Source of the DNA: Acutalibacteraceae bacterium
GTDB taxonomy: Bacteria > Bacillota > Clostridia > Oscillospirales > Acutalibacteraceae
DNA: 64,000 nt
Direction: 5' to 3'
NCBI GenBank assembly: GCA_045642125.1
Contig: JAZUIE010000012.1
Location: 5,151-69,150 of the forward strand
In this document: positions 1,807 to 63,466 of the stretch, one piece after another
Position numbering within the stretch: position 1 is the first letter of the stretch
How the letters are laid out: every line of letters starts with the position of its first letter
Program-made: the position numbers and the translations under genes
The notes under the pieces: generated by a model
Seen by the model: the letters and a program-made list of their open reading frames with translations, nothing else
What the model was told of the DNA's origin: nothing
Databases searched by the model: none

Positions 1807-3753
1807 TTAAATATCCAAATCGGTAGCAAATACCGCATTTTCTTCAATAAACTGTCTTCTCGGCTCAACCTCTTCGCCCATGAGCATTGTAAACGTTTGG
1901 TCGGCAAGTTCTGCATCGCTCATTGTTACACGAAGCATCGTTCTTTGCTCTGGGTCAAGAGTTGTTTCCCATAACTGCTCGGGGTCCATTTCACCGAGAC
2001 CCTTATATCTCTGAACATCGGCAGTTCCGCCGAATTCTTCTATATATGCCGCCTTTTCTTCTTCGGTGAAAGCGTCCTTATGCTGTTTACCCTTTGAAAC
2101 TCTGAAAAGCGGCGGCTGAGCTAAATAAACATGGCCTTCCTTTATAAGCTCGGGCATATAGCGGAAGAAGAATGTTAAAAGAAGCGTTCTTATGTGGCTT
2201 CCGTCAACATCGGCATCCGCCATAATTACGATTTTATCGTAACGAAGCTTTGTAATATCAAAGTTTTCGGCTATTCCCGTGCCTAACGCAACAATTACGG
2301 GCGACAATTTGTCGTTTCCGTAAATTTTGTCGGCTCTCGCCTTTTCGACATTAAGCATTTTACCCCACAAAGGAAGTATTGCCTGATAGGTAGAGTTTCT
2401 GCCGTCTACCGCACTGCCTCCTGCCGAGTCACCCTCGACTATGTAAAGCTCTGTTTTTGTCGCATCGTTTGAAATACAGTCGGTAAGCTTTTCGGGCATT
2501 CTCGCCTTATTACCGAGTCCCGATTTACTTCTTGATGCTTCTCTCGCCTTTTGCGCCGCTTCACGGGCATTAGAAGATGCGATAGATTTATCGAGTATTA
2601 TCTTTGCTTCCTGCGGGTGTTCTTCTAAATACTGATACATCTTGTCGGCAACAATACCGTTAACAAGTGTACCTATTGAAGTATTACCGAGCTTTGCTTT
2701 TGTCTGCGATTCAAACTGTGCATCGGATAACTTAACGCTGACAACCGCTATAAGACCTTCGTTTATATCGTCCGCCTTAAGATTCGGGTTTGCGTCTTTA
2801 AGAAACTTAAAGTTTCTGCCGTACTTATTAACAACTCTTGCAAGAGAGTTCTTAAAGGCGGCTTCGTGCGTACCGCCGTCTACAGTATGAATGGTGTTTG
2901 CAAAGGACATTATTTTAGTATCGTAAGCCGTACTCCATAAAAGCGCAATTTCGGCTATCGAATTATCCTTATCACTGCCCGAAAGATAGATTACATCGTT
3001 ATTAAGTCTGTTTTTCTTCGATTTTTCGAGCAAGTATTCAACATAAGACTTAATACCGCCCTCAAAACATAAATCGTCTTCACGGTTTTCAATATCGGCA
3101 TCGCTTCTTAAATCTTTAAGAACTATTCTTATTCCGCCGTTTAAGAAAGCCTGTTCACGAAGTCTTTGAAGTAAAATATCGTAATCGTATCTTGTAGTAT
3201 CTGTAAATATTGTCGGGTCGGGCTTAAATGTAACCGTTGTACCCGTTTCTTTTGTATCGCCTATTACTTTAAGGTCTTCTTTAATATTTCCTTTTTCGTA
3301 TCTTTGCTTATAAATATGTTCTCCGTCTTTAACCTCAACCTCGAGCCACGAAGAAAGGGCATTAACAACCGAAGCGCCGACACCGTGCAAACCGCCCGAA
3401 ACCTTATATCCGCTTCCGCCGAACTTACCGCCTGCGTGAAGAATTGTGAAAACAACACTTACTGTCGGTATTCCCTTTTGCGGATGTATACCTACAGGTA
3501 TACCACGACCGTTATCTGTTACTTTAATTATACCGTCATCAAGCAAAAATACTTCTATTTTATCGCAGTATCCCGCAAGTGCTTCGTCTATCGAGTTGTC
3601 AACAATTTCATAGACTAAATGGTGAAGACCTCTTTCACCCGTTGAGCCTATGTACATACCCGGTCTTTTTCTTACCGCTTCGAGTCCCTCTAAAACCTGT
3701 ATTGAGTTTTCGTCATAAGATTCTGTTACGGTAGTTTTTATTTCTTCACTCAT
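1807..3753 (-). CDS. gyrB: DNA gyrase subunit B
   Basis: 648-aa ORF with GHKL ATPase motifs (HHLVYEIVDNSIDEA, GGLHGVGASVVNALS) and a Toprim region (YIVEGDSAGGSA, IMADADVDGSHI). It ends in ...ENAVFATDLDI. Position is between recF and gyrA. Confidence 0.97.
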   Translation of the reverse strand: MSEEIKTTVTESYDENSIQVLEGLEAVRKRPGMYIGSTGERGLHHLVYEIVDNSIDEALAGYCDKIEVFLLDDGIIKVTDNGRGIPVGIHPQKGIPTVSVVFTILHAGGKFGGSGYKVSGGLHGVGASVVNALSSWLEVEVKDGEHIYKQRYEKGNIKEDLKVIGDTKETGTTVTFKPDPTIFTDTTRYDYDILLQRLREQAFLNGGIRIVLKDLRSDADIENREDDLCFEGGIKSYVEYLLEKSKKNRLNNDVIYLSGSDKDNSIAEIALLWSTAYDTKIMSFANTIHTVDGGTHEAAFKNSLARVVNKYGRNFKFLKDANPNLKADDINEGLIAVVSVKLSDAQFESQTKAKLGNTSIGTLVNGIVADKMYQYLEEHPQEAKIILDKSIASSNAREAAQKAREASRSKSGLGNKARMPEKLTDCISNDATKTELYIVEGDSAGGSAVDGRNSTYQAILPLWGKMLNVEKARADKIYGNDKLSPVIVALGTGIAENFDITKLRYDKIVIMADADVDGSHIRTLLLTFFFRYMPELIKEGHVYLAQPPLFRVSKGKQHKDAFTEEEKAAYIEEFGGTADVQRYKGLGEMDPEQLWETTLDPEQRTMLRVTMSDAELADQTFTMLMGEEVEPRRQFIEENAVFATDLDI

Positions 3754-3777
3754 TTTTTTCTCCTTAAAGTAAAGTTT

Positions 3778-4038
3778 TTATATATTGTTTATAAGGTCTT
3801 GCCTTTTAAGTAGCGTTTTTGAAGAAAGCTGTGAAAAATACACCTTTTGTTCGCCGTTTTCTTTTACAACAACAAATGTTTTCGGAATATCCGAAGTTGT
3901 ATTTACTATTTTTCCTTCTTTTTCGGCTCTTTCTAAAAACTGTCTTGCCTTTAGTGAAACGGTGCAGTTGTCAAAATCAAAAATTCCTATAATGTTTTTT
4001 GTGTTAATAATATAGTTGTTTCCTAAATGTATAAACAT
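3778..4038 (-). CDS. remB: DUF370 / RemB (YaaB)-like small protein
   Basis: 86-aa ORF (MFIHLGNNYIINTKNIIGIFDFD...) in the conserved Firmicutes slot between recF and gyrB. The family call rests on size, position and N-terminal pattern recalled from DUF370. Confidence 0.7.
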   Translation of the reverse strand: MFIHLGNNYIINTKNIIGIFDFDNCTVSLKARQFLERAEKEGKIVNTTSDIPKTFVVVKENGEQKVYFSQLSSKTLLKRQDLINNI

Positions 4039-4050
4039 ATATTTTCACCT

Positions 4051-5112
4051 TTATATTATTTCGCCGTTTTTAATCTTAATAATTTTTCCGCTTTTTAAGT
4101 TTTTACTGTTTACAGGGTCGCAACAGGTAATAAAAACCTGCATATTTTTAATTTGATTTATAATATAATTTTGGCGCTTTTCGTCAAGCTCACTCATAAC
4201 ATCGTCAAGCAAACAAACGGGATATTCTCCGCTTATATTTTTAAAAATTTCGGCAAAAGAAAGTTTAATGCTTAATACAATACTTCTTTGCTGACCTTGT
4301 GAAGCAAAAAGCCTTGCATTTATATTATTTAATAAAAATTCTATATCGTCCCTATGCGGTCCTATACCCGTAAAACCGACAAGAGAATCTTCTTTTCTTT
4401 TTTCTTTTAATTTTTCTCTTAAATTTCCTTTTTCATTAGGTTTATATTTAATTGTTGCCTTTTCTTTTTGTTCGGATAAATCAGAATATATTTTTTCAAA
4501 AGGTAAAGATAATTTATTTATAATGTTTTCTCTGTACTTTATTATTTTTTCGCCGTTTTCGGCAATTTCTTTTTCGAAAACATCAAGTAAAATATCAAGA
4601 CTCTTATCATATTTATAGTCTTTTATTATTTTATTTCTTTGTAATAAGGCTTTATTGTAATTTTTAAGTATACTTATATATCTCGGATATATTTGTCCTA
4701 TCGTAAGGTCAATAAATTTTCGTCTTTCGTTAGGTCCTCCCTTAATAAGAGATAAATCGTCAGGCGAAAACACAACCGCACAAAAATGTCCCGCAATATT
4801 AGTAAAATTATTTTCTTTTTTATCATTTATAAAAGCGGTTTTTTTATCGCTATACTCTATTTTTAACTTTTCTTTGCCTTTATTTGATGTAAAAAATATT
4901 TCGTTTACGGCTTTATTTGTTCCAAAATTAATAAAAGCGTCTTCCTTCGAAGTTCTGAAACTTTTAGCGCCGGTAAAAAGCCATAAAGCTTCTAAAATAT
5001 TAGTCTTTCCCTGCCCGTTTTCACCGCAGATAATATTAATATTTTCGTCAGCAGTAATATTTATATCTTTAAGATTACGAAAGTTTTTAATATTTATGCT
5101 TTTAATTTGCAT
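4051..5112 (-). CDS. recF: DNA replication/repair protein RecF
   Basis: 353-aa ORF with Walker A GENGQGKTNILEA, an SMC-like signature region SQGQQRS and Walker B CLLDDVMSELD. Position is dnaN-yaaA-recF. Confidence 0.93.
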   Translation of the reverse strand: MQIKSINIKNFRNLKDINITADENINIICGENGQGKTNILEALWLFTGAKSFRTSKEDAFINFGTNKAVNEIFFTSNKGKEKLKIEYSDKKTAFINDKKENNFTNIAGHFCAVVFSPDDLSLIKGGPNERRKFIDLTIGQIYPRYISILKNYNKALLQRNKIIKDYKYDKSLDILLDVFEKEIAENGEKIIKYRENIINKLSLPFEKIYSDLSEQKEKATIKYKPNEKGNLREKLKEKRKEDSLVGFTGIGPHRDDIEFLLNNINARLFASQGQQRSIVLSIKLSFAEIFKNISGEYPVCLLDDVMSELDEKRQNYIINQIKNMQVFITCCDPVNSKNLKSGKIIKIKNGEII

Positions 5113-5323
5113 TTTTTACAATTAAACCTTTATTATCATATTCTACAGTGTCGTTTTCTCTTATTTTTTTGCCCCTTTGTACACAAATTTCTCCGTTAAC
5201 TTTAACGAGTCCGTCTAAAATAACATTCTTTGCCTGTCCGCCGGAGCCTAAAAGAGAAGAAAATTTAAGCAAACTGTCAAGCTTAATAAAATCGCCTTTA
5301 ATATAAATTTCTTTATATTCCAT
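5102..5323 (-). CDS. yaaA: S4-domain RNA-binding protein YaaA
   Basis: 73-aa ORF overlapping the recF start by 11 nt and abutting the dnaN stop. GGQAKNVILDGLVKVNGEICVQRGKKIRENDTV is S4-like. Confidence 0.75.
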   Translation of the reverse strand: MEYKEIYIKGDFIKLDSLLKFSSLLGSGGQAKNVILDGLVKVNGEICVQRGKKIRENDTVEYDNKGLIVKNAN

Positions 5324-6429
5324 TATTTTAACCTCATCGGCATTATAAGATAGAGAAAGTCTTTGTTGTTTTCGTCCGCCGATGTAATAACAACACCCTG
5401 ATTTGCGCCGTTAAACTTAAACGAAATATTACCTTCGTCACAAGCCTTTAATGCTTCGCCTAAATAACGGCTGTTTAGACCTATTTCGAAGTTTTCTCCT
5501 TCAAGTTTTATATTAAGTGTTTCTTTTGCTCTTCCTATTGATGTAGCACAGTTTATAACAAGTTTTTCTTCTTCAAAATTACATCTTATAGGTGTTGAAA
5601 AAATATCATTTATTATTAACGATATTCTGTCAACAGAGTTAATAATTTCGTTTGAATTAACAGTAATTTTTTGTTTGTATTCGTCAGGAATGATTTTTTC
5701 GTAGTTTACAAATTCGCCTTCAAGTAAACGGGCAATAAACAAATAACCGTCAATATTAAATGAAACAAGTCTTTTTCCTACAATAATATCAATATTGCTG
5801 TTTTCTTCTCCTACAAGCTTAATAACTTCGTTTACGGCTTTTCCCGAAACTACAAACTCAACATTTTCATTTATATTTACTTTTTCTCTTCTTATTGAAA
5901 GTCTGTATCCGTCAATAGCAACTAATTGCAAAATACCGTCTTTAATCGAAATATTTATACCCGTAAGAATAGGTCTTGTTCCCTCAATTTGAGAAACGGC
6001 AAAAATAGTTCTTTTAACCATTTCACAAAAAATTTTGCCGTCTACCGTTATTTTGCTTCCGTCAGAAACGGACGGCATTTCGGGAAAGTCACTCGCAGCC
6101 ATTCCCATAATGTCAAAGGTTGCTTCTCCGCTTTTAATATGACACATCAAAGAGTCGTCAGCTTCTATAATTACCTGTGCGCCGTCAAGCTTTCTTAAAA
6201 TGTCGGACAAGAGTCTTGCATTAATTACAATGTCACCCGCATCTTCGCAGGAGCAATACATTTCCTTTTTCATTCCCATTTCGAGATTGTATGTAGCAAG
6301 AGTTAAAAGTCCCTGTTCGGCAGAAATTAAAATTCCTTCCAAAATAGGCATTGATGTTTTGTTTGTTACAACTTTTTGGAGTTTTGATACAGCATCTAAA
6401 AATGAAGCACGTTCTACGGAAAATTTCAT
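5323..6429 (-). CDS. dnaN: DNA polymerase III beta sliding clamp
   Basis: 368-aa ORF with N-terminus MKFSVERASFLDAVSKLQKVV and C-terminus ...YLIMPMRLK typical of beta clamps. It lies immediately downstream of dnaA. Confidence 0.93.
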   Translation of the reverse strand: MKFSVERASFLDAVSKLQKVVTNKTSMPILEGILISAEQGLLTLATYNLEMGMKKEMYCSCEDAGDIVINARLLSDILRKLDGAQVIIEADDSLMCHIKSGEATFDIMGMAASDFPEMPSVSDGSKITVDGKIFCEMVKRTIFAVSQIEGTRPILTGINISIKDGILQLVAIDGYRLSIRREKVNINENVEFVVSGKAVNEVIKLVGEENSNIDIIVGKRLVSFNIDGYLFIARLLEGEFVNYEKIIPDEYKQKITVNSNEIINSVDRISLIINDIFSTPIRCNFEEEKLVINCATSIGRAKETLNIKLEGENFEIGLNSRYLGEALKACDEGNISFKFNGANQGVVITSADENNKDFLYLIMPMRLK

Positions 6430-6642
6430 TTTTTATCACCTTTTTCTTAAAAATATATAAATAAATACCAGTAGTAGTAAAGTCGGTTAAAACGGTTAGT
6501 TTGTCCCGAAAGCCTTTTTATAAAAGAATTCCTGCGGTTTAAAAAAAAGTAAATAAATTGTTTATAAGTCTAATAACTTTTCACTTTCAACACCTATGTT
6601 AAAAACTCATTGTTTATTAACACTTAAAATGTTGATAATTTT
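6430..6642. other. dnaA-dnaN intergenic region with one near-consensus DnaA box (TGTTGATAA, 6630-6638)
   Basis: Scanned by eye against TTATCCACA/TGTGGATAA. I found only one 1-mismatch 9-mer and some weaker (2-3 mismatch) matches such as TGTTTATAA. Confidence 0.3.
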
Positions 6643-7977
6643 TTAGGTTTCTCCCGTTAAATTTTTGATAATATCGTTGACGAGTTCTTTTTGATAAGGC
6701 TTATCCGCCAAGAACTTTTCAACCTGATTTACATTATATAAAACGGTCGAATGGTCTTTGCCGAAGCTTTCGCCTATTGCCTTATAGGAAAGGTCGGTCG
6801 TTTCTCTCGATATGTACATAGCAACCTGACGGGCGAGAACCAAAGACTGCGTACGGCGGTTAGATAAAATGTCACTCTCGGAAACATTGTAGGTTCTCGC
6901 AACCTCTTCTATAATCTTTTCAATTTTAATAGGCTCGGGCTGCATATCGTTTATAACGTCTTTTATAAAGCCTTGTACAATAGAAATATTAGGCACCTTG
7001 TTTTGTATGTTTACATACGCCTTAAGCTTCTTTATAACGCCCTCAATTTGACGGGTGTTTGCTTTTATGTGTTCGGCAATGTAATATACTATATTTTCTT
7101 CTAAATCAAAGCCGCTTTCGTTTGCCTTTCTTCTTATGATACCGACTCTCGTTTCAAAGTCGGGCGGGGTAATGTCGGCAAACAAGCCACTCGCAAAACG
7201 GGAACGGATACGGTCGTCAAGAGTTTTTATTTCCTTAAGCGGACGGTCGAGCGTTACAACTATCTGCTTGTTGTTTTGGTAAAGAGTATTAAAGGTATTA
7301 AAGAACTCTTCCTGTGTTTGCTCTTTTCCGGCTATGAAGTGAATATCGTCAACAAGCAAAACATCAACGCCCCTGAACTTTGTCCTGAAGTCGTCTATCG
7401 TGCCTAAACCTAACTTACCCTCTTGAATTGCCTGAATAAGACGGTTTGTAAAGTCTTCGCCTCTCGTGTACTCGATTTTCTTGCCGGGAAATTTGTTTTT
7501 TATGTGGTTTTTAATGGCAAGCAAAAGGTGCGTCTTGCCGACACCGGACGGGCCGTAAATAATAAGGGGGTTGTAATTTATAAGTCCGGGGTTTTCCGCA
7601 ACGGCAAAGGCGGCGGCTTGGGCAAACTTGTTAGAAGAGCCGACAACGAAATTGTTAAAGGTGAAGAAATCTTCAAAGGAAAGACCTTCACTGTGTTCTT
7701 CGGCTTTTCTTATCTTGTCTTCGTCACTTTCGTATATAACCTTAGGCGTAAGGTCAATGCCCATAATCGTTTTAATGGAAGCCGTTAAAAGCCCCATATA
7801 GTTTTGCTCTATAACGCCGCAGATGTAATCGTTGTTGTGCGACATAACAAAATTGCCGTCTTCTATGTAGAGAGGTTTAAGACCGCTGAAAAAGCAGTCA
7901 AAAGCAACGGTAGAAATAGTTTTTTTACATTCTTCGCAAATTGCTTCCCAAATATCAAACATAGAATCAGAAGCCAT
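6643..7977 (-). CDS. dnaA: Chromosomal replication initiator protein DnaA
   Basis: AAA+ motifs GPSGVGKTHLL and LLVDDIHFIAGKEQTQEEFFNTFN, plus the C-terminal DNA-binding signature LSYKAIGESFGKDHSTVLYNVNQV. The track ORF runs to 8052. I prefer the ATG at 7975-7977 (MASDSMFDIWEAI...) because the first 25 codons are a translation of pure AT-rich DNA. Confidence 0.93.
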   Translation of the reverse strand: MASDSMFDIWEAICEECKKTISTVAFDCFFSGLKPLYIEDGNFVMSHNNDYICGVIEQNYMGLLTASIKTIMGIDLTPKVIYESDEDKIRKAEEHSEGLSFEDFFTFNNFVVGSSNKFAQAAAFAVAENPGLINYNPLIIYGPSGVGKTHLLLAIKNHIKNKFPGKKIEYTRGEDFTNRLIQAIQEGKLGLGTIDDFRTKFRGVDVLLVDDIHFIAGKEQTQEEFFNTFNTLYQNNKQIVVTLDRPLKEIKTLDDRIRSRFASGLFADITPPDFETRVGIIRRKANESGFDLEENIVYYIAEHIKANTRQIEGVIKKLKAYVNIQNKVPNISIVQGFIKDVINDMQPEPIKIEKIIEEVARTYNVSESDILSNRRTQSLVLARQVAMYISRETTDLSYKAIGESFGKDHSTVLYNVNQVEKFLADKPYQKELVNDIIKNLTGET

Positions 7978-8120
7978 TTTTACCACCCCTATAAATAATA
8001 TTATATATGATAATATATTATATATATATATAAATATATAATAGTATAACATAATATAATATAGTTTTCAACATTTATTTGCGTTTTTGTTGACAAAACC
8101 GCACGGATAAAAGATTTTTG
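7978..8120. other. Putative oriC segment: AT-rich unwinding-element candidate (about 7990-8065) plus DnaA-box-like 9-mer
   Basis: About 75 nt of almost pure A/T (ataaataatattatatatgataatatattatatatatatataaatatata...) lie directly upstream of dnaA. TGTTGATAA (1 mismatch to TGTGGATAA) sits at 8119-8127. No cluster of perfect boxes was seen. Confidence 0.4.
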
Positions 8121-8149
8121 TTGATAAATATGAAAAAATGTGGTATTAT
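8121..8149 (+). promoter_or_regulatory. Sigma-A-type promoter driving the tRNA-Pro transcription unit
   Basis: -35 TTGATA (8121-8126), 17-nt spacer, extended -10 TGgTATTAT (8141-8149). The only downstream terminator lies after tRNA-Pro. Confidence 0.5.
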
Positions 8150-8211
8150 TATCGGGCGTTCAAAAAAAGAGAACAAAACAAACAGTATTGATATAAAAAA
8201 ATTTAATATTT

Positions 8212-8362
8212 CGAGGTGTAGCGCAGCAGGACACGCGCCAGTTTTGGGTGAGAAATGCGAGTGCGTCCTGCGGACGATTAAACGAGCAGTTCGAAGCGCT
8301 GCGGTCGATAGGTGCGCCACGCTCCAAGTGAGCGCAACATCGGGCACCGCAAGAGGGTTGCC
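8212..8362 (+). ncRNA. Unclassified structured element, copy A: truncated tRNA-Pro-like 5' head (8212-8248) fused to a conserved ~115-nt domain (8249-8362)
   Basis: The head repeats CGAGGTGTAGCGCAG and GCGCCAGTTTTGGG of the tRNA-Pro gene at 8420. The domain aligns without gaps to 18321-18434. Helices: 8252-8258/8286-8292, 8264-8268/8272-8276, and a long irregular hairpin 8301-8350. Strand was assigned from the promoter/terminator context. All pairs are Watson-Crick, so pairing alone does not orient it. Confidence 0.55.
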
Positions 8363-8419
8363 AAAACAGGCTGAAAAAAAACATAAACAAATTTTATTAT
8401 ACTTACAATTTAACAATTT

Positions 8420-8495
8420 CGAGGTGTAGCGCAGTTGGTAGCGCGCCAGTTTTGGGAACTGGATGCCGCAGGTTCGAGCCCTGTCACCTCGACCA
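8420..8495 (+). tRNA. tRNA-Pro (anticodon UGG)
   Basis: Cloverleaf read by eye: acceptor CGAGGTG/CACCTCG, D arm GCGC-AGTTGGTA-GCGC, anticodon arm CCAGT-TTTGGGA-ACTGG, T arm GCAGG-TTCGAGC-CCTGT, encoded CCA. Confidence 0.93.
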
Positions 8496-8502
8496 AAACA
8501 AA

Positions 8503-8532
8503 AAACCTATCACGAAAGTGATAGGTTTTGTT
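8503..8532. terminator. Bidirectional rho-independent terminator (tRNA-Pro and the convergent DUF4956 operon)
   Basis: Stem ACCTATCAC/GTGATAGGT with a GAAA loop, an A-run upstream and a T-run downstream. Confidence 0.7.
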
Positions 8533-8563
8533 ATTAAAACTCAAATTTCAAAAGGATAATTTA

Positions 8564-9241
8564 TCAGAATGTAACTTCACCGTCATGGGCAAGAAGAGAA
8601 GCGGTTTTAACGCACGGAAGAGAAGACACTTCTTTTATAAGCTCGGCGCCGTCTTTCGTTCTTACTTCAACGGTAAGATTAAGAGAAGATGCGGTTAAAT
8701 TTCTCGACTTAACGGTGTTATGGGGAGAATACTTTGTTACGGCTTCCATTATACTTTTTTCTGCATCTGTATCGTCTGCGTTTACAATTAAAATAAGCGG
8801 TGCTTTTGCTATGGGGAGTCTGTTAAGAACAAATATTGCAACCGTCATGGCAAGAGCCAAAATAACGGAAAATTCCGCAAAACCGGCACCGCAGATAATA
8901 CCCGTACTTATTGCCCAAAACAAGAACATAAGGTCAATGGGGTCCTTTATGGCGGTTCTGAAGCGGACAATGGAAAGTGCGCCGACCATACCGAGAGAAA
9001 CAACAACGCTTGACTGAATGGTGATAATTATTGCCGATGTAATAAGCGCCACGCCGACAAGAGAGATGTTGAAATTCTTTGAGTAAAAGGTCTTTCTTGT
9101 AATAAGACGGTACACAAAGAAAATATAAAGTGCGATAAGCGCCGTCACGGCAAGAGCGACAATAACGGAAGATGTTGTTATACGGTCACTCGCATAGCCT
9201 TCCAAAAACGATTTTTTGAAGATGTCTTTAAGTGTTAACAT
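8564..9241 (-). CDS. DUF4956-domain membrane protein
   Basis: 225-aa multi-pass membrane ORF with SIVRFRTAIKDPIDLMFLFWAI, a pattern I associate with DUF4956. It sits in the usual CotH-VTC-DUF4956 arrangement. Confidence 0.75.
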   Translation of the reverse strand: MLTLKDIFKKSFLEGYASDRITTSSVIVALAVTALIALYIFFVYRLITRKTFYSKNFNISLVGVALITSAIIITIQSSVVVSLGMVGALSIVRFRTAIKDPIDLMFLFWAISTGIICGAGFAEFSVILALAMTVAIFVLNRLPIAKAPLILIVNADDTDAEKSIMEAVTKYSPHNTVKSRNLTASSLNLTVEVRTKDGAELIKEVSSLPCVKTASLLAHDGEVTF

Positions 9242-9252
9242 AATTTTCTCCT

Positions 9253-9945
9253 TTATTTTAAGTTAAATTTTCTGCACAAATAGTATTTTGAGTAAGCCGT
9301 TTGCCTTAGGTTGTCGAGCGAAAGCAAATTATAGATAAAATCGGGAATAAACTCGTCATATTTTACTTCAAGCAAACTAAGACCGTTTGGCATTATGGGA
9401 CGAAGCGGGTATCCGCCGTCCAAAAAAGACTGTGTAAAGTCGGAAGAAGCCATATTTGTATCAAAGGTTATCCGGACATTACCGTCTTTATAAACATAAG
9501 GAAAGCGCTCATATTCTACAATTATGACGGGGTGGAGAAGATGCGTTTCCTTTTCGAGTAAAAACTTGTTAAGAAGCGCCGGATTTTCTTGCCTTTTTTC
9601 GGGAGTTATACCCGCCATTATAAGACGGGTTTCTTCTTCGGTCAGCATTGTAGATTTTTTTAGTGTTTTTCCCCGTTCTTTTCTCTTAAGCTCTAAAGAA
9701 ATGCGCTCTTTTGAATGGTTATAAATGCGAATTCTGAACTTTTCTCTCGGGTCGGTGCCGTTTTCGTTTTCGTAGTAGCAACGGTTATAGTAGTCGTCAA
9801 AATAAAGGCTTGTTATAGTGTATTTACCGTTAGGTCCGACATGGGAATCGAGCGGAACGGCGCCGGATATTCTGTTTTGTAAAACAGCCATTTGAGCAGA
9901 AGTAATGGGATACTTTAGCTCGTGTCTAAAATTAGGCCCGTCCAT
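9253..9945 (-). CDS. VTC (polyphosphate-polymerase-like) domain protein
   Basis: 230-aa ORF with N-terminal FRHELKY and the size and order typical of bacterial VTC-domain proteins next to DUF4956. Confidence 0.7.
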   Translation of the reverse strand: MDGPNFRHELKYPITSAQMAVLQNRISGAVPLDSHVGPNGKYTITSLYFDDYYNRCYYENENGTDPREKFRIRIYNHSKERISLELKRKERGKTLKKSTMLTEEETRLIMAGITPEKRQENPALLNKFLLEKETHLLHPVIIVEYERFPYVYKDGNVRITFDTNMASSDFTQSFLDGGYPLRPIMPNGLSLLEVKYDEFIPDFIYNLLSLDNLRQTAYSKYYLCRKFNLK

Positions 9946-11803
9946 TTTTCTCTCCTTTTTTACGGTTTTTTATTTCAAAGATTATAAAAACGGCAAAAAT
10001 TACGGCAAAGACAAAAAGTAAAAACAGCTCTAACTTAATATCGCTTATTAAAGCCGTTATACCGCCGTTTGAGGACGAAGCAACATCGGCATATAAGGAG
10101 ATGTTTTCGTACGGTCTGAAGACAGAAAAATCTACAATTTCGTCAGTTTTAAGATTTCTCCAAACAACATTGCCGTTAATGTGAATTTTATCAGTGTCCA
10201 AAACGGGCTCACCGCTTTTAACGGTTACAGATTTAATGGAACTAAACTTGTCGTTTTCGTAAAAAGAAACGGAAACATAATCTTCGCCCGAAAGCCAAAC
10301 CTTATTGAGAAAAGCGGTCTTTTTGTCTAAAAAGTCCGTAAGACTTTCGGTTTGCTCCTCAAAACTCAAGCGGTTTTCGTAAACGCCGTCAAACAAAGTG
10401 TTCCAGCGAAGACTGTTTAATTTTGATGCGGTTTTTATTTCGTTTTCGTATTTCGGAAGCTCTTTTTGCGTTAATTCGTTAATAAGGGGCAAAAATTCCG
10501 TTTTATAAATTTCTATAACCTTTTCTTTGAACTCTTTACATTCATAAAGCGCCTTAACAAAGGAGTTTGAAGAAGTACAGGTGCTGTAAATTTGCTCGGG
10601 GTCACGAGATCTTAAGGCGCTCATATACGCCGTATTTCCCATAGATAGGTCGTAGTCCCAAACGGGACCTGCGTAAAACAAATTTTTCTTACTGTCATAC
10701 CTATAAAACGAACTTGCGGCATCTGTGTCGGTGTTGCTGAAAATTTCGTCTGTTAAAAATCTTCTTGCAAAGGAATTAAGGTCAACTCTTTTAAGGTTGC
10801 CCGACAAAATTTCGGTTTCAAAGGAATTTACAGTATCCTTTATACGGTCTTTTTCTTTGTCTGTAAACTTTTTAGGATAATCGATTGTAAAATAGCGGTT
10901 GTTGTCCGTAACTATGGTGTCTTTTTTGTTTTTTGCCCTTGCTTCGAGAGCCGTTTCAAACAAAAAATCAGACTTTTCGTTATTTAAGGAAACTCTGTTT
11001 TCTGCCACTTCAACACGCTCTGTTAACAAGTAAAGTCCAAAGTATTCGCCGTCTAAATAAAGGTCGGCAAAACGGCAGTCGGGCGACCAGCCGAGCCCTG
11101 CTTTTTTAGCAAAGCCGAGCACCGTTTTGTTTCTTAGGTTTGTTTCGTCAAAGCCGTTTGCCAAAAGAGTTAAAGAAGCGCCCTTTTTCATACCGAGAAC
11201 GCTCGTGTTTTCAAAAAAGTATAGATTAAACGGCTTTTTTTCGAGTCCCCAAGTCGAGTTTCCCCGACCTTTGATTTTATCTGCGCCGTTGCCTTTATAA
11301 TCGAGTTTGCCGTTTTCGTCAAAAATATTGAGCATAACGGACTCTTTTTTGTTTTTATCTTCAAAAACATTTTTAAGACTGCCTTTAGGCGACTTAACAA
11401 AAACGGTTGCAACATTCGAAGATTTAACGAAAACAGCAGTTTCTTTTTTTGAAGAAAAAACGCTTTTTTCTATTACCTGATAGTCCGTATCAAGAGCAAA
11501 ATCAGAGAGTTTTAACGGCCTTTTAAGAGATTTTCCGTTAAATGTTACCCCGTCAGACGAAGAAATAAGTGAAAGCTTCGAAAACTCTGAAAATGACGGC
11601 AAGTAAAAATACCATTTTTGGTCGTTTGATTTTACGGCGGTAATTTTTTGTTCGCCGTTTTCACCTTTAAGTAAAACTGTTATCGGAAGAGATTTTTCGC
11701 CCGATAGTTCTGTCTTTATGCCTATAAAGGCAAGACCCGACAAAAGAAGCAAAAGCAACGCTATACTTACCGTTCTAAACAAATATTGCTTTGTTCTGAG
11801 CAT
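9932..11803 (-). CDS. CotH-family atypical kinase, membrane-anchored at both ends
   Basis: 623-aa ORF. It has an N-terminal hydrophobic segment (VSIALLLLLLSGLAFIGI), a CotH-like core (GRGNSTWGLEKKPFNLYF ... GPVWDYDLSMG) and a C-terminal TM (LFLLFVFAVIFAVFIIF). Confidence 0.75.
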   Translation of the reverse strand: MLRTKQYLFRTVSIALLLLLLSGLAFIGIKTELSGEKSLPITVLLKGENGEQKITAVKSNDQKWYFYLPSFSEFSKLSLISSSDGVTFNGKSLKRPLKLSDFALDTDYQVIEKSVFSSKKETAVFVKSSNVATVFVKSPKGSLKNVFEDKNKKESVMLNIFDENGKLDYKGNGADKIKGRGNSTWGLEKKPFNLYFFENTSVLGMKKGASLTLLANGFDETNLRNKTVLGFAKKAGLGWSPDCRFADLYLDGEYFGLYLLTERVEVAENRVSLNNEKSDFLFETALEARAKNKKDTIVTDNNRYFTIDYPKKFTDKEKDRIKDTVNSFETEILSGNLKRVDLNSFARRFLTDEIFSNTDTDAASSFYRYDSKKNLFYAGPVWDYDLSMGNTAYMSALRSRDPEQIYSTCTSSNSFVKALYECKEFKEKVIEIYKTEFLPLINELTQKELPKYENEIKTASKLNSLRWNTLFDGVYENRLSFEEQTESLTDFLDKKTAFLNKVWLSGEDYVSVSFYENDKFSSIKSVTVKSGEPVLDTDKIHINGNVVWRNLKTDEIVDFSVFRPYENISLYADVASSSNGGITALISDIKLELFLLFVFAVIFAVFIIFEIKNRKKGEKNGRA

Positions 11804-18060: not shown

Positions 18061-18089
18061 TTGACTTTTTTGAGTCTTTGTGATAAAAT
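18061..18089 (+). promoter_or_regulatory. Sigma-A-type promoter of the tRNA-Ser operon
   Basis: -35 TTGACT (18061-18066), 17-nt spacer, extended -10 TGaTAAAAT (18081-18089). Confidence 0.6.
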
Positions 18090-18104: not shown

Positions 18105-18191
18105 GGAGAGGTATCGAAGTGGTCATAACGAGGCGGTCTTGAAAACCGTTTGGGGCAACCCACAAGGGTTCGAATCCCTTCCTCTCCGCCA
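18105..18191 (+). tRNA. tRNA-Ser (anticodon UGA)
   Basis: Acceptor GGAGAGG/CCTCTCC, anticodon arm GCGGT-CTTGAAA-ACCGT, long variable arm, T arm AAGGG-TTCGAAT-CCCTT, encoded CCA. Confidence 0.92.
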
Positions 18192-18294
18192 TTTTTAAGA
18201 AAACTTTCCGCTTTTTTTGAACACAAAACGAAAAAAACGAGAAAGTTACACATAGACGACAATTTAATACCAAAGATATTTATGTTATCAATAC

Positions 18295-18434
18295 GGAGTA
18301 GTACAGGGGCTGGTGACGGGCTACGGTTTCGAGTGCGTCCGGTGGACGAAGAAACGAGAAACGGTAGGCGCAGCGGTCGATAGGTGCGCCACGCTCCAAG
18401 TGAGCGCAACATCGGGTACCGCAAGAGGGCAGCC
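18295..18434 (+). ncRNA. Unclassified structured element, copy B: truncated tRNA-Ser-like 5' head (18295-18320) fused to the conserved domain (18321-18434)
   Basis: The head shares GGAGTAGTAC and GCTGGTGACG with tRNA-Ser(GCU) at 18516. The 37-nt leader 18258-18294 is 34/37 identical to 18479-18515. Domain helices: 18321-18330/18358-18367, 18336-18340/18344-18348, and hairpin 18373-18422. Confidence 0.55.
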
Positions 18435-18515
18435 GAGGAACGTATATAAAACACAAAAAAGTTAAAGCAGAATATAAAGACAATTTAATACTAAAGATAT
18501 TTTAGTTATCAATAC

Positions 18516-18606
18516 GGAGTAGTACTCAAGCTGGTGACGAGGCACCCCTGCTAAGGGTGTAGGTCGGGTAACCGATGCGAGAGTTCGAATCTCTCCTACT
18601 CCGCCA
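18516..18606 (+). tRNA. tRNA-Ser (anticodon GCU)
   Basis: Acceptor GGAGTAG/CTACTCC, anticodon arm ACCCC-TGCTAAG-GGGTG, long variable arm, T arm GAGAG-TTCGAAT-CTCTC, encoded CCA. Confidence 0.92.
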
Positions 18607-63023: not shown

Positions 63024-63097
63024 TGGAGGCACCACCCAGATTCGAACTGGGGATAAAGGCTTTGCAGGCCCGCGCCTTACCACTTGGCCATGGTGCC
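63024..63097 (-). tRNA. tRNA-Cys (anticodon GCA)
   Basis: Reverse complement is GGCACCATGGCCAAGTGGTAAGGCGCGGGCCTGCAAAGCCTTTATCCCCAGTTCGAATCTGGGTGGTGCCTCCA. Acceptor GGCACCA/TGGTGCC, anticodon loop CTGCAAA, T arm CCCAG-TTCGAAT-CTGGG. Confidence 0.88.
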
Positions 63098-63152
63098 GAA
63101 TATGTAATTTTTAGTTTATTAAAGGGCACTTAAAAGACTTTTAAGTGCCCTA

Positions 63153-63228
63153 TGGAGCGGATTACGTGGCTCGAACTCGCTACCTCAACCTTGGCAAGGT
63201 TGCGCTCTACCAGATGAGCTAAATCCGC
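63153..63228 (-). tRNA. tRNA-Gly (anticodon GCC)
   Basis: Acceptor GCGGATT/AATCCGC and anticodon arm CAACC-TTGCCAA-GGTTG. By my reading the T stem carries one A-A mismatch. Confidence 0.85.
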
Positions 63229-63231
63229 AGA

Positions 63232-63307
63232 TGGTGCCTCCGGTCGGAATCGAACCAACGACACGGGGATTTTCAGTCCCCTGCTCTACCGACTGAGCTA
63301 CAGAGGC
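63232..63307 (-). tRNA. tRNA-Phe (anticodon GAA)
   Basis: Acceptor GCCTCTG/CGGAGGC, anticodon arm GGGGA-CTGAAAA-TCCCC, T arm GTTGG-TTCGATT-CCGAC. Confidence 0.92.
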
Positions 63308-63310
63308 AAA

Positions 63311-63387
63311 TGGCGACCTGGATGGGGATCGAACCCACGACCTCTAGCGTGACAGGCTAGCGTTCTAACCAGCTGAACTACCAGGCC
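63311..63387 (-). tRNA. tRNA-Asp (anticodon GUC)
   Basis: Acceptor GGCCTGG/CCAGGTC, anticodon arm CTAGC-CTGTCAC-GCTAG, T arm GTGGG-TTCGATC-CCCAT. Confidence 0.92.
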
Positions 63388-63390
63388 AAA

Positions 63391-63466
63391 TGGTGGGAAC
63401 AATAGGGCTCGAACCTATGACCCTCTGCTTGTAAGGCAGATGCTCTCCCAGCTGAGCTATGCTCCC
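63391..63466 (-). tRNA. tRNA-Val (anticodon UAC)
   Basis: Acceptor GGGAGCA/TGTTCCC, anticodon arm TCTGC-CTTACAA-GCAGA, T arm ATAGG-TTCGAGC-CCTAT. Confidence 0.92.

Follow-up and report, generated by a model that had tools for sequence, protein, structure and literature searches.

The 64,000-nucleotide (nt) stretch of DNA analysed here (the window; Acutalibacteraceae bacterium, GenBank assembly GCA_045642125.1, contig JAZUIE010000012.1, positions 5,151 to 69,150) carries two copies of a structured element of 113 nt. Each is fused to a truncated tRNA gene copy and lies upstream of the intact version of the same tRNA gene. The first copy belongs to a tRNA-Pro(UGG) unit on the plus strand. This unit is preceded by a promoter-like site at 8121-8149, assigned by consensus match only (TTGATA, a 17-nt spacer and TATTAT with a TG-extended -10; 10/12 matches). 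Downstream follow a leader (8166-8211), the truncated tRNA-Pro(UGG) copy (8212-8248), the structured domain (8246-8357; 91 bits, E=5e-23 with the covariance model described below) and a 10-nt 3' extension (TTGCCAAAAC, 8358-8367). A second leader (8374-8419), with a weaker promoter-like site at 8371-8400, leads into the intact tRNA-Pro(UGG) gene (8420-8495). The unit is closed by a terminator-like hairpin at 8502-8529 that has T-runs on both sides; it is symmetric and was listed by the scan on the minus strand.

A truncated tRNA-Pro copy carries the domain

A first-pass annotation of the window had described 8212-8248 as a look-alike of the tRNA-Pro 5' part, and the underlying repeats hold. The sequence CGAGGTGTAGCGCAG is present at both 8212-8226 and 8420-8434, and GCGCCAGTTTTGGG at both 8235-8248 and 8443-8456, so that the copy comprises tRNA positions 1-37, with the D-loop CAGGACAC in place of TTGGTAGC. 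The leader repeat, then given as about 13 nt, proved to be longer. According to the repeat finder, the duplicated stretch includes about 46 nt of leader, and 8166-8248 and 8374-8456 are 71% identical over 83 nt (repeat family D6). The tRNA-Pro copy breaks precisely after position 37, between TTTTGGG and TGAG, and then runs into the GC-rich domain, which takes its initial GGG from the fragment (G35-G37). ARAGORN and the Rfam tRNA model (68.4 bits) agree that only 8420-8495 scores as a tRNA, and neither ARAGORN nor Rfam RF00005 called a tRNA at 8212-8362 or at 18295-18429.

Beyond the domain lie the 10-nt extension and an AT-rich spacer, not tRNA positions 38-76. The earlier statement that no 3' exon follows is therefore correct in that there is no tRNA 3' half, but it overlooked that the ten nucleotides after the domain resemble the tRNA-Pro 3' terminus plus trailer (GACCAAAAC, 8491-8499). 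The extension is conserved across all Pro-type units as YKRCCAAARC. Since this looks like a tRNA 3' terminus, the Pro unit can be described as a tRNA-Pro gene in which positions 38 to about 70 have been replaced. The look-alike is best read as the stump of a duplicated tRNA-Pro gene, consisting of the leader, positions 1-37 and a few 3'-terminal bases and occupied in its interior by the 113-nt element, and not as a purpose-made RNA such as one that yields tRNA halves.

The recurrence of the domain 10 kb away had also been noticed, and the covariance model finds exactly two copies in the window, at 8246-8357 and 18318-18429. The second copy (97 bits) turned out to be part of another look-alike, this time of tRNA-Ser, which the first-pass annotation did not contain. 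Here, a promoter-like site (18061-18089) precedes an operon on the plus strand whose first gene is tRNA-Ser(UGA) (18105-18191). It is followed by a partial duplicate of tRNA-Ser(GCU) at 18258-18318, made of a leader (18258-18294) and tRNA positions 1-24 (18295-18318) with the D-loop AGGG instead of TCAA. After the domain come a 3' extension conserved in Ser-type units (CAGCCGAGGAAC, 18430-18441) and the intact tRNA-Ser(GCU) (18516-18606). The duplicated segments, 18258-18318 and 18479-18539, are 89% identical over 61 nt (repeat finder, family D8). The two domain copies of the window are 84% identical overall and have identical P3 regions. Both units share one layout, namely leader and 5' tRNA fragment, domain, spacer, leader and intact tRNA. 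Its occurrence twice in the window with two different tRNAs excludes a chance resemblance, and the tRNA-Ser look-alike is the strongest clue within the window that the tRNA-domain fusion is systematic.

We also considered how the units are transcribed. The first-pass proposal of a single precursor agrees with the promoter-like site upstream of the tRNA-Pro unit and with the terminator-like hairpin after the tRNA. The weaker second site in leader copy 2 makes this likely but uncertain. Judging from the shared strand, the promoter-like sites and the lack of an internal terminator, the window domains are most likely transcribed together with the tRNAs and would be freed by RNase P cleavage at the 5' end of the real tRNA.

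In several decoys the D-loop has been rewritten (window 8222-8233 versus 8428-8439; loci L027, L028, L029, L084, L106). In these, TTGGT is changed to CCCAA, CTCTA, CCCTT or CAGGAC, and in Ser units TCAA is changed to GGGG. The rewriting removes the conserved G18 and G19. In some cases the new loop (CCCAAA) is complementary to the UUUGGG ahead of the domain.

The domain is a conserved fold

A gapped pattern derived from four copies matched at least 119 stretches in a collection of species-representative genomes. The context counts given below are based on 130 pattern-matched copies among the matches listed, and the carriers among these matches were almost all Acutalibacteraceae, Oscillospiraceae or Ruminococcus metagenome-assembled genomes (MAGs) from animal and human guts. 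From 75 non-redundant copies we built a covariance model of 113 positions. In the collected loci this model recovered 151 copies from more than 100 MAGs, including divergent ones outside the pattern, and it rejected five pattern matches from unrelated phyla.

The consensus begins with GGG followed by CA or TGAG, and then forms P1, a freely covarying helix of 4-10 bp. Tandem G.A pairs, a 2-bp helix, the P2 hairpin, a five-base bulge, the return strands and the sequence GGCGCA follow. P2 mostly reads CGTCC-NNN-GGACG, with variants such as GCTGCC/GGCAG and GCACTC/GAGTG. In the 3' part, P3a (GCGGT paired with ACCGC) encloses the long variable hairpin P3b, whose loop is often CUCCAAG, and AAGAGGG ends the domain. 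In window copy 1, P2 is found at 8264-8276, P3a at 8301-8305 with 8346-8350 around the variable P3b, and the AAGAGGG tail at 8351-8357; the corresponding elements of copy 2 are at 18336-18348, 18373-18377 with 18418-18422, and 18423-18429.

Folding of single sequences was uninformative (z -0.7 and -0.9), and the structure rests on covariation. Standard pairs fill 95.9% of the cells, and in 23 of the 25 pairs both partners have changed. The covariation score was 0.458, compared with 0.125 for shuffled alignments (0/500 reached the observed value) and 0.05-0.07 for slid registers. The domain is a genuine conserved fold with very strong covariation. Many unpaired positions are conserved as well, among them junction purines of the compact core, while the invariance of GGACGA, GCGGTC and ACCGCAAGAGGG in the alignments is partly imposed by the search pattern. 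Indeed, P2, P3a and the last GGG can change in divergent model matches, and the left GGG, present in the pattern-matched copies, is missing from some divergent ones. G.U pairs (32 cells) and A.C mismatches (29) are about equally frequent, and the covariation is of the Watson-Crick type only. G.A and U.U mismatches (58) exceed their opposite-strand equivalents (15), which indicates that the plus strand is the folded strand, either as RNA or as single-stranded DNA.

P3a and its apical loop (GCAGCGGTC..CUCCAA..ACCGC; window 8301-8357 and 18373-18429) resemble the anticodon arm of tRNA-Trp, and the terminal GAGGG of the domain resembles the 5' strand of a T-stem. Local alignment with the domain gave a score of 12.5 for tRNA-Trp and at most 10 for every other tRNA species. 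The domain itself may be a much-expanded derivative of tRNA-Trp.

The flanks contribute little to the structure. The two flanks do not generally pair with each other (duplex energies compared with shuffles, mean z -0.38; 7% below -2). Flanking hairpins are weakly enriched, before the GGG (30% versus 20%) and after the GAGGG (14% versus 5%), and this mainly in the type B units described below; obligatory flanking hairpins were rejected on these grounds. Modular variants of the fold were seen as well. In L013 (5772-5887) a normal P1/P2 half is joined to a different long 3' hairpin, and other modular variants (L059 190-306 and 495-609) have P2 changed to GCCGCC-GGG-GGCGG.

Copies are fused to fragments of the neighbouring tRNA

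For 73% of the 112 evaluable copies, a tRNA gene is no more than 700 nt away. The most frequent arrangement, which we call type A (47 copies), is that of the window units, in which a leader and a 5' tRNA fragment precede the domain and the intact tRNA lies downstream. It involves tRNA-Pro-UGG (24), Ser-GCU (12), Trp (8), fMet (2) and Pro-CGG (1). Type B (21 copies) starts with the intact tRNA and its terminator, followed by a short 5' segment, the domain and a 3' fragment of the same tRNA, and often carries a second copy of the terminator. Here, the tRNAs are fMet (9), Trp (4), Ser-GCU (3), Ser-UGA (2), Pro-CGG (2) and Arg (1). Four copies (type C) are inverted relative to a convergent tRNA (Leu-CAG, Leu-GAG, Gln and Gly). 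In ten further copies various tRNAs lie within 700 nt and a duplication was undetected, 30 copies have no tRNA within this distance, and 18 are non-evaluable because of a contig end. Tallied by orientation, 121 tRNA neighbours are on the same strand as the domain and 10 on the opposite one.

In types A, B and C (72 of the 130 copies) the tRNA fragment always matches the neighbouring intact tRNA gene, and among these copies we saw no case in which the interrupted tRNA was the sole copy. The junction regularly falls at a GGG of the tRNA, which is G35-37 in tRNA-Pro, the T-stem GAGGG in tRNA-Trp (types A and B) and the anticodon-stem GGG in tRNA-fMet. Trp units also have their own conserved 3' extension. 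In type B units the segment 5' of the domain has a peculiar composition. First comes an antisense copy, approximately 20 nt long, of the tRNA sequence across the junction in its uninterrupted form; a short stub in sense orientation follows and ends in GGG. This was seen for fMet, Trp, Ser and Pro-CGG (L114, L066, L007, L044 and L103).

Copies away from tRNAs have no flanking direct repeat, from which it follows that the long duplication is not an automatic product of insertion. A terminator-like hairpin is located within 130 nt upstream of 37% of the copies, compared with 9% of control positions, and no consistent promoter of the element was apparent among the copies inspected.

The tRNA-Pro unit is found at the dnaA locus of relatives

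The likeness to tRNA-Pro is reproduced in related genomes, as the first-pass annotation would have it, at the orthologous dnaA-proximal locus of two genomes; the architecture as such recurs at the 47 loci of the same type in other genomes. In these two relatives (DnaA 82% and 77% identical) decoy, domain and tRNA-Pro are arranged upstream of dnaA in the same way, with two units in tandem in one of the genomes. A third relative (DnaA 81%) has retained the tRNA-Pro, with the domain reduced to a 23-nt relic of its 3' end in the leader. In more distant relatives the dnaA-proximal position is devoid of tRNA-Pro. Both window units are old, inherited copies that reside inside tRNA operons on the tRNA strand.

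Relics of this kind, about 23 nt long and made of the domain 3' end plus extension (GAACCGCAAGAGGGTTACCAAAAC), stand alone in the tRNA-Pro leader just after the promoter. Their approximate positions, on the minus strand, are 2790-2770 in L128 and 9795-9770 in L001. The lone relic suggests either that the tail has a role of its own or that deletions recur between the repeats.

Copies recur within genomes and in tandem

Tandem arrays were found with two (L002), three (L062) and four (L091) units, and there are partial units (L032) and relics (L001, L128). Dispersed copies within one genome are 83-99% identical, compared with a mean of 74% and a 95th percentile of 83% between genomes. The Ruminococcus MAG CAZKUO01 has five near-identical units of about 215 nt with unrelated flanks (L006, L026, L035, L073 and L099). 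Each includes an 85-nt 3' extension and sits in the loop of a CCTCCC/GGGAGG hairpin repeat, in which this genome is rich. L008 and L097, which are 3.4 kb apart, have in common a block composed of the tRNA 3' end, terminator, 5' segment, domain and tRNA 3' fragment. Sequence derived from tRNA forms both borders of this block. Two further pairs have the terminator and the domain in common; for only one of them does the locus extend over the 3' side, and there the similarity continues for about 45 nt past the domain.

The element matches no Rfam family and has no recurrent partner gene

The first-pass annotation did not recognise any described RNA class, and Rfam 15 bears this out. There was no match at gathering score in the whole window or at E<=10 in 8050-8600, nor at E<=1 in ten other family members. 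Full-text literature searches returned no published description of the element.

Partner genes were sought in about 115 loci. All-against-all clustering of their 751 open reading frames (ORFs) revealed no recurrent partner protein, the largest family being present in 7 loci. No effector gene (TnpB, IscB, Cas or IS110-type recombinase) and no recombinase family recurs in the loci, no HUH (Y1) transposase is found in the 8-kb loci, and the units of about 200-330 nt contain neither an ORF nor an integrase remnant. An autonomous version, with the domain halves separated by genes, was likewise not present in the loci. BLAST of the window copy against phage and plasmid collections gave no match. In IMG/VR the strict pattern had 0 matches and a loose one matched 120 loci; of these, 100 were screened with the model and two contigs were real. 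In the viral contig examined (L138/L177, IMG/VR 3300000356_000136) the units belong to host DNA next to the border of a prophage. Behind three tandem Pro units, this contig has a tRNA-Pro copy into which unrelated DNA cuts at about position 41, as if a prophage had integrated into the anticodon arm of this tRNA.

Several known element classes were tried and rejected. A group I intron is excluded by the domain size of 113 nt (these introns exceed 200 nt), the absence of a contiguous 3' exon and the absence of an Intron_gpI match. For a ribozyme of the hepatitis delta virus (HDV)-like or theta type there is no HDV-family match and no segment complementary to GGGCA or GGGTGAG. A miniature inverted-repeat transposable element (MITE) was dismissed on account of missing terminal inverted repeats and target-site duplication, and the scar of a tRNA-targeting integrative element because no integrase or remnant lies between the tRNA direct repeats. 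A guide RNA (omega RNA, reRNA or bridge RNA) was discarded since there is no fixed order of scaffold and guide and no recurring effector. Consistent with an IS200/IS605-type PATE or REPIN are the two hairpin arms, the GGG at the left junction (in pattern-matched copies), the Watson-Crick-only covariation and the strong orientation bias; the arms are unlike known left-end and right-end (LE/RE) sequences.

The tRNA-Pro unit lies beside the chromosomal origin

The genes dnaA, dnaN and recF lie in the window together with a gyrB-like gene (gyrB-like, recF, dnaN and dnaA, within 1807-8200, minus strand), and the cumulative GC skew has its minimum at about 6-8 kb. An AT-rich stretch of TATA repeats is found upstream of dnaA at about 7990-8060. 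The genes and the skew minimum identify the oriC region of the chromosome, and the tRNA-Pro unit is thus located directly beside it. The closest matches to the DnaA of the window are from uncultured Clostridia, Acutalibacteraceae and Ruminococcaceae MAGs. On its other side, the tRNA-Pro unit adjoins a recurring trio of genes with DUF4956, VTC and CotH-kinase domains (8564-11803, minus strand). There is no recombinase between the two window copies, and Pfam assigned only housekeeping-type domains to the intervening genes. A compact tRNA cluster at 63024-63466 (Val-Asp-Phe-Gly-Cys, minus strand) is devoid of a domain copy.

Discussion

With moderate confidence, we favor the view that the element is a non-autonomous, multi-copy repeat module, restricted to Oscillospirales gut bacteria, that lives mainly in tRNA loci, spreads by recombination via its tRNA-derived flanks and by segmental duplication, and persists beside an intact tRNA. 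This is based on its fusion with many different tRNAs, the match of each fragment to the intact neighbour, the copies away from tRNAs that lack duplications, and the arrays and relics. Further support comes from the similarity of copies within a genome, from recent copies that include their flanks, and from the lack of an own promoter or partner gene.

Such a module would join a tRNA gene at a GGG, which would be G35-37 in tRNA-Pro, the T-stem GAGGG in tRNA-Trp and tRNA-Ser, and the anticodon-stem GGG in tRNA-fMet. Joining would destroy that tRNA copy, so that only arrangements with an intact copy of the same tRNA alongside would persist. The direct repeats formed by the fragment and the intact tRNA could drive unequal crossing-over and thereby produce tandem arrays and relics. 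The same repeats could allow excision and re-insertion of the module or segmental copying, in a Campbell-type manner via the tRNA-derived flanks, and gene conversion might keep copies within a genome similar. The fold would then be a candidate for recognition by a recombination or copying machinery acting in trans, or it might have a role as RNA. A Campbell-type scar was one of three hypotheses raised by the first-pass annotation. It fits best of the three, since recombination of this kind produces a duplicated flank, tandem arrays and dispersed modules that are nearly identical and bounded by tRNA-derived sequence. Another of the three, an RNA set free by tRNA processing or a ribozyme, may still apply; the domain is oriented like the tRNA and has no internal terminator in the window, and known ribozyme families do not match it.

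A number of observations weigh against a mobile module. There is no clean empty site at the dnaA/tRNA-Pro locus, where the relatives have a unit, a relic or no tRNA. The orthologous domains at this locus are 75-78% identical with compensatory changes, while the neighbouring spacers have diverged, and each of the Pro, Ser and Trp unit types is found in 8-24 genomes and has a conserved 3' extension of its own. To judge from these comparisons, the arrangement is old and stable, and at the orthologous dnaA locus fold and 3' extension are evidently under purifying selection. The repeat-module model also gives no account of why type B units carry the intact target site as an antisense copy. Terminal inverted repeats are absent, the ends GGG(CA/TGAG)... 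and ...CAAGAGGG being direct and not inverted, and no short target duplication is visible in the copies away from tRNAs. As no mobilising enzyme was identified either, it is the copy patterns alone that argue for mobility.

A different kind of mobility would result if the fold were itself an active RNA or single-stranded DNA element, possibly derived from tRNA-Trp, that inserts at GGG in hairpin loops of tRNA genes by its own catalysis or with the help of a host enzyme. For example, ligation of the domain RNA to tRNA halves might be followed by reverse transcription, or the fold might be the substrate of a structure-specific recombinase. We regard this as unlikely. If it were true, no mobile element that both derives from tRNA and targets tRNA genes would have been described in bacteria before it, and the antisense copy of the type B units would be a functional homing or priming segment.

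The long persistence at equivalent loci and the purifying selection on fold and extension make a host non-coding RNA family a serious rival to the repeat module, even if we consider it the less probable explanation and rather unlikely in itself. In that case the RNA, possibly tRNA-derived, would be matured from tRNA precursors, and the tRNA flanks would serve as handles for processing or stability. The very strong covariation, the many conserved unpaired positions and the 121 same-strand against 10 opposite-strand tRNA neighbours all agree with this. So do the placement of the commonest type between operon promoter and tRNA without an intervening terminator, the retention at equivalent loci of many species with type-specific conserved 3' extensions, the compensatory changes that keep the dnaA-locus fold while the spacers diverge, and the resemblance of the P3 arm to the tRNA-Trp anticodon arm (12.5 versus at most 10). 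However, many copies lie after terminators and have no recognisable promoter, four are antisense to the tRNA, and partial, degenerate and head-to-tail copies occur. With the tRNA fragment 5', 3' or absent, no single mature RNA architecture is conserved; flank pairing and flanking hairpins are not general, and G.U pairs that are no commoner than A.C (32 versus 29) are atypical for selection on an RNA helix. It seems quite improbable to us that the element is an RNA that cleaves or splices itself, be it a small ribozyme of a new kind or something like an intron, with cuts at the GGG boundaries or excision from tRNA precursors. The 5' boundary of the Pro unit does fall at tRNA position 37/38, the classic intron position, the ends are sharp and conserved (GGG ... 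AAGAGGG), the compact core has conserved junction purines, and there is a precedent in gut-phage ribozymes whose cleavage site abuts tRNAs (PMC10879173). Yet no Rfam ribozyme or intron model matched even at permissive thresholds, type A units have no 3' exon, and the intact tRNA alongside leaves nothing that needs splicing. In addition, by inspection nothing is complementary to the first 5-7 nt, which makes an HDV-like P1 impossible, and the 3' GGG varies in divergent copies.

Two further explanations were weighed against the repeat module. Integrases that target tRNA genes leave direct repeats of the tRNA 3' part around the inserted DNA as the signature of integration, and the units could accordingly be attachment-site scars of decayed prophages or integrative and conjugative elements. 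In one viral contig, moreover, the border of a prophage falls in the anticodon arm of this very tRNA-Pro. We nevertheless hold such an origin to be very unlikely, since the same 113-nt fold is found at more than 10 tRNA species and on both the 5' and the 3' side, and since the units of about 200-330 nt are free of integrase remnants. The strict pattern is absent from viral contigs, phage and plasmid searches gave no match, and base-pair covariation would be unexpected for integrase arm sites. Hardly credible is a guide RNA on either strand, in which the domain would be a protein-binding scaffold and the tRNA segment the guide against the tRNA or its gene; its opposite-strand version was put forward in the first-pass annotation. 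It is true that the tRNA-matching segment abuts a scaffold-like conserved fold and that type B units carry the approximately 20-nt antisense copy across the junction. The segment, however, may be 5' (47 copies), 3' (21) or inverted (4), sense or antisense, and 24 to about 53 nt long with leader or terminator, and hence has no fixed geometry. Thirty copies have no tRNA within 700 nt, and those examined have no tRNA-derived flank. No nuclease gene or other effector recurs in the approximately 115 loci, and the internal loops are conserved and do not covary with the target.

If the element is a repeat module as favored here, undescribed structured repeats colonise the tRNA loci of a large and poorly studied group of gut Clostridia. 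The recurrent 'pseudo-tRNA' fragments and tandem arrays, which would otherwise hamper the annotation of tRNAs and the assembly of MAGs, would then be accounted for. It would also become clear how essential RNA genes that exist in a single copy can harbour an element, namely if this persists only beside a duplicate. Should the fold act as RNA, be it as ribozyme, protein scaffold or regulator of tRNA precursors, it would represent a new bacterial RNA class with comparative data from more than 100 species. Whatever its function, the domain is absent from Rfam, has covariation of textbook quality and merits a family entry.

Comparison with known systems

In its working, the element comes closest to structured repeats of the REPIN/PATE/MITE type and to integrative elements that preserve their target tRNA through a partial duplicate. 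It lacks inverted ends, a short duplication and an integrase, however, and no transposase was identified. Like REPIN/REP sequences, PATEs derived from IS200/IS605 and MITE-like repeats (bcr1, RUP, Correia), it is short, ORF-less, multi-copy, folded and intergenic, and it often follows a terminator. Tandem and degenerate copies, similarity within a genome and a mobilising function that is encoded elsewhere, if at all, are further points in common. Unlike them, it has neither terminal inverted repeats nor a short target duplication, and its two-arm fold with conserved junctions is not a simple palindrome. It also differs in its preference for tRNA genes, in the long tRNA fragments fused to it, in the approximately 2-6 copies seen per genome and in that no cognate transposase was identified. 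With tRNA-targeting integrative elements it shares the partial tRNA duplicate at the insert, the intact tRNA, crossovers in the anticodon or T-arm and modules with tRNA-derived bounds. In contrast to these, the insert is only about 200-330 nt and has no integrase, duplications of the tRNA 5' part are commonest, and one fold is combined with many tRNA targets.

Theta ribozymes, which are HDV-like, follow complete tRNAs in gut phages and adopt the HDV fold (PMC10879173). They are likewise small structured elements of gut microbiome genomes whose 5' boundary abuts tRNA sequence. The element described here, however, follows a truncated tRNA copy, is chromosomal, does not match the HDV models and has no HDV-like P1. 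Group I introns in tRNA anticodon loops and the split tRNAs of Nanoarchaeota also interrupt the anticodon loop, as the Pro units do after position 37; our element, however, lacks a 3' exon, and a gene for the 3' half does not exist either. Moreover, the domain is too small for a group I intron, and an intact tRNA adjoins the tRNA-fused units. The 3'ETS-leuZ of E. coli is a spacer-derived RNA from a tRNA operon, a short, unstructured sponge from a single locus. Our element would likewise be part of a tRNA precursor and freed by tRNA processing, but it is a dispersed, covarying 113-nt fold fused to tRNA gene fragments. This tRNA-fusion architecture is unusual and undescribed. Mechanism and function are what we infer from the arrangement of the copies, while the fold itself and its association with tRNA genes are robust and new to the databases.

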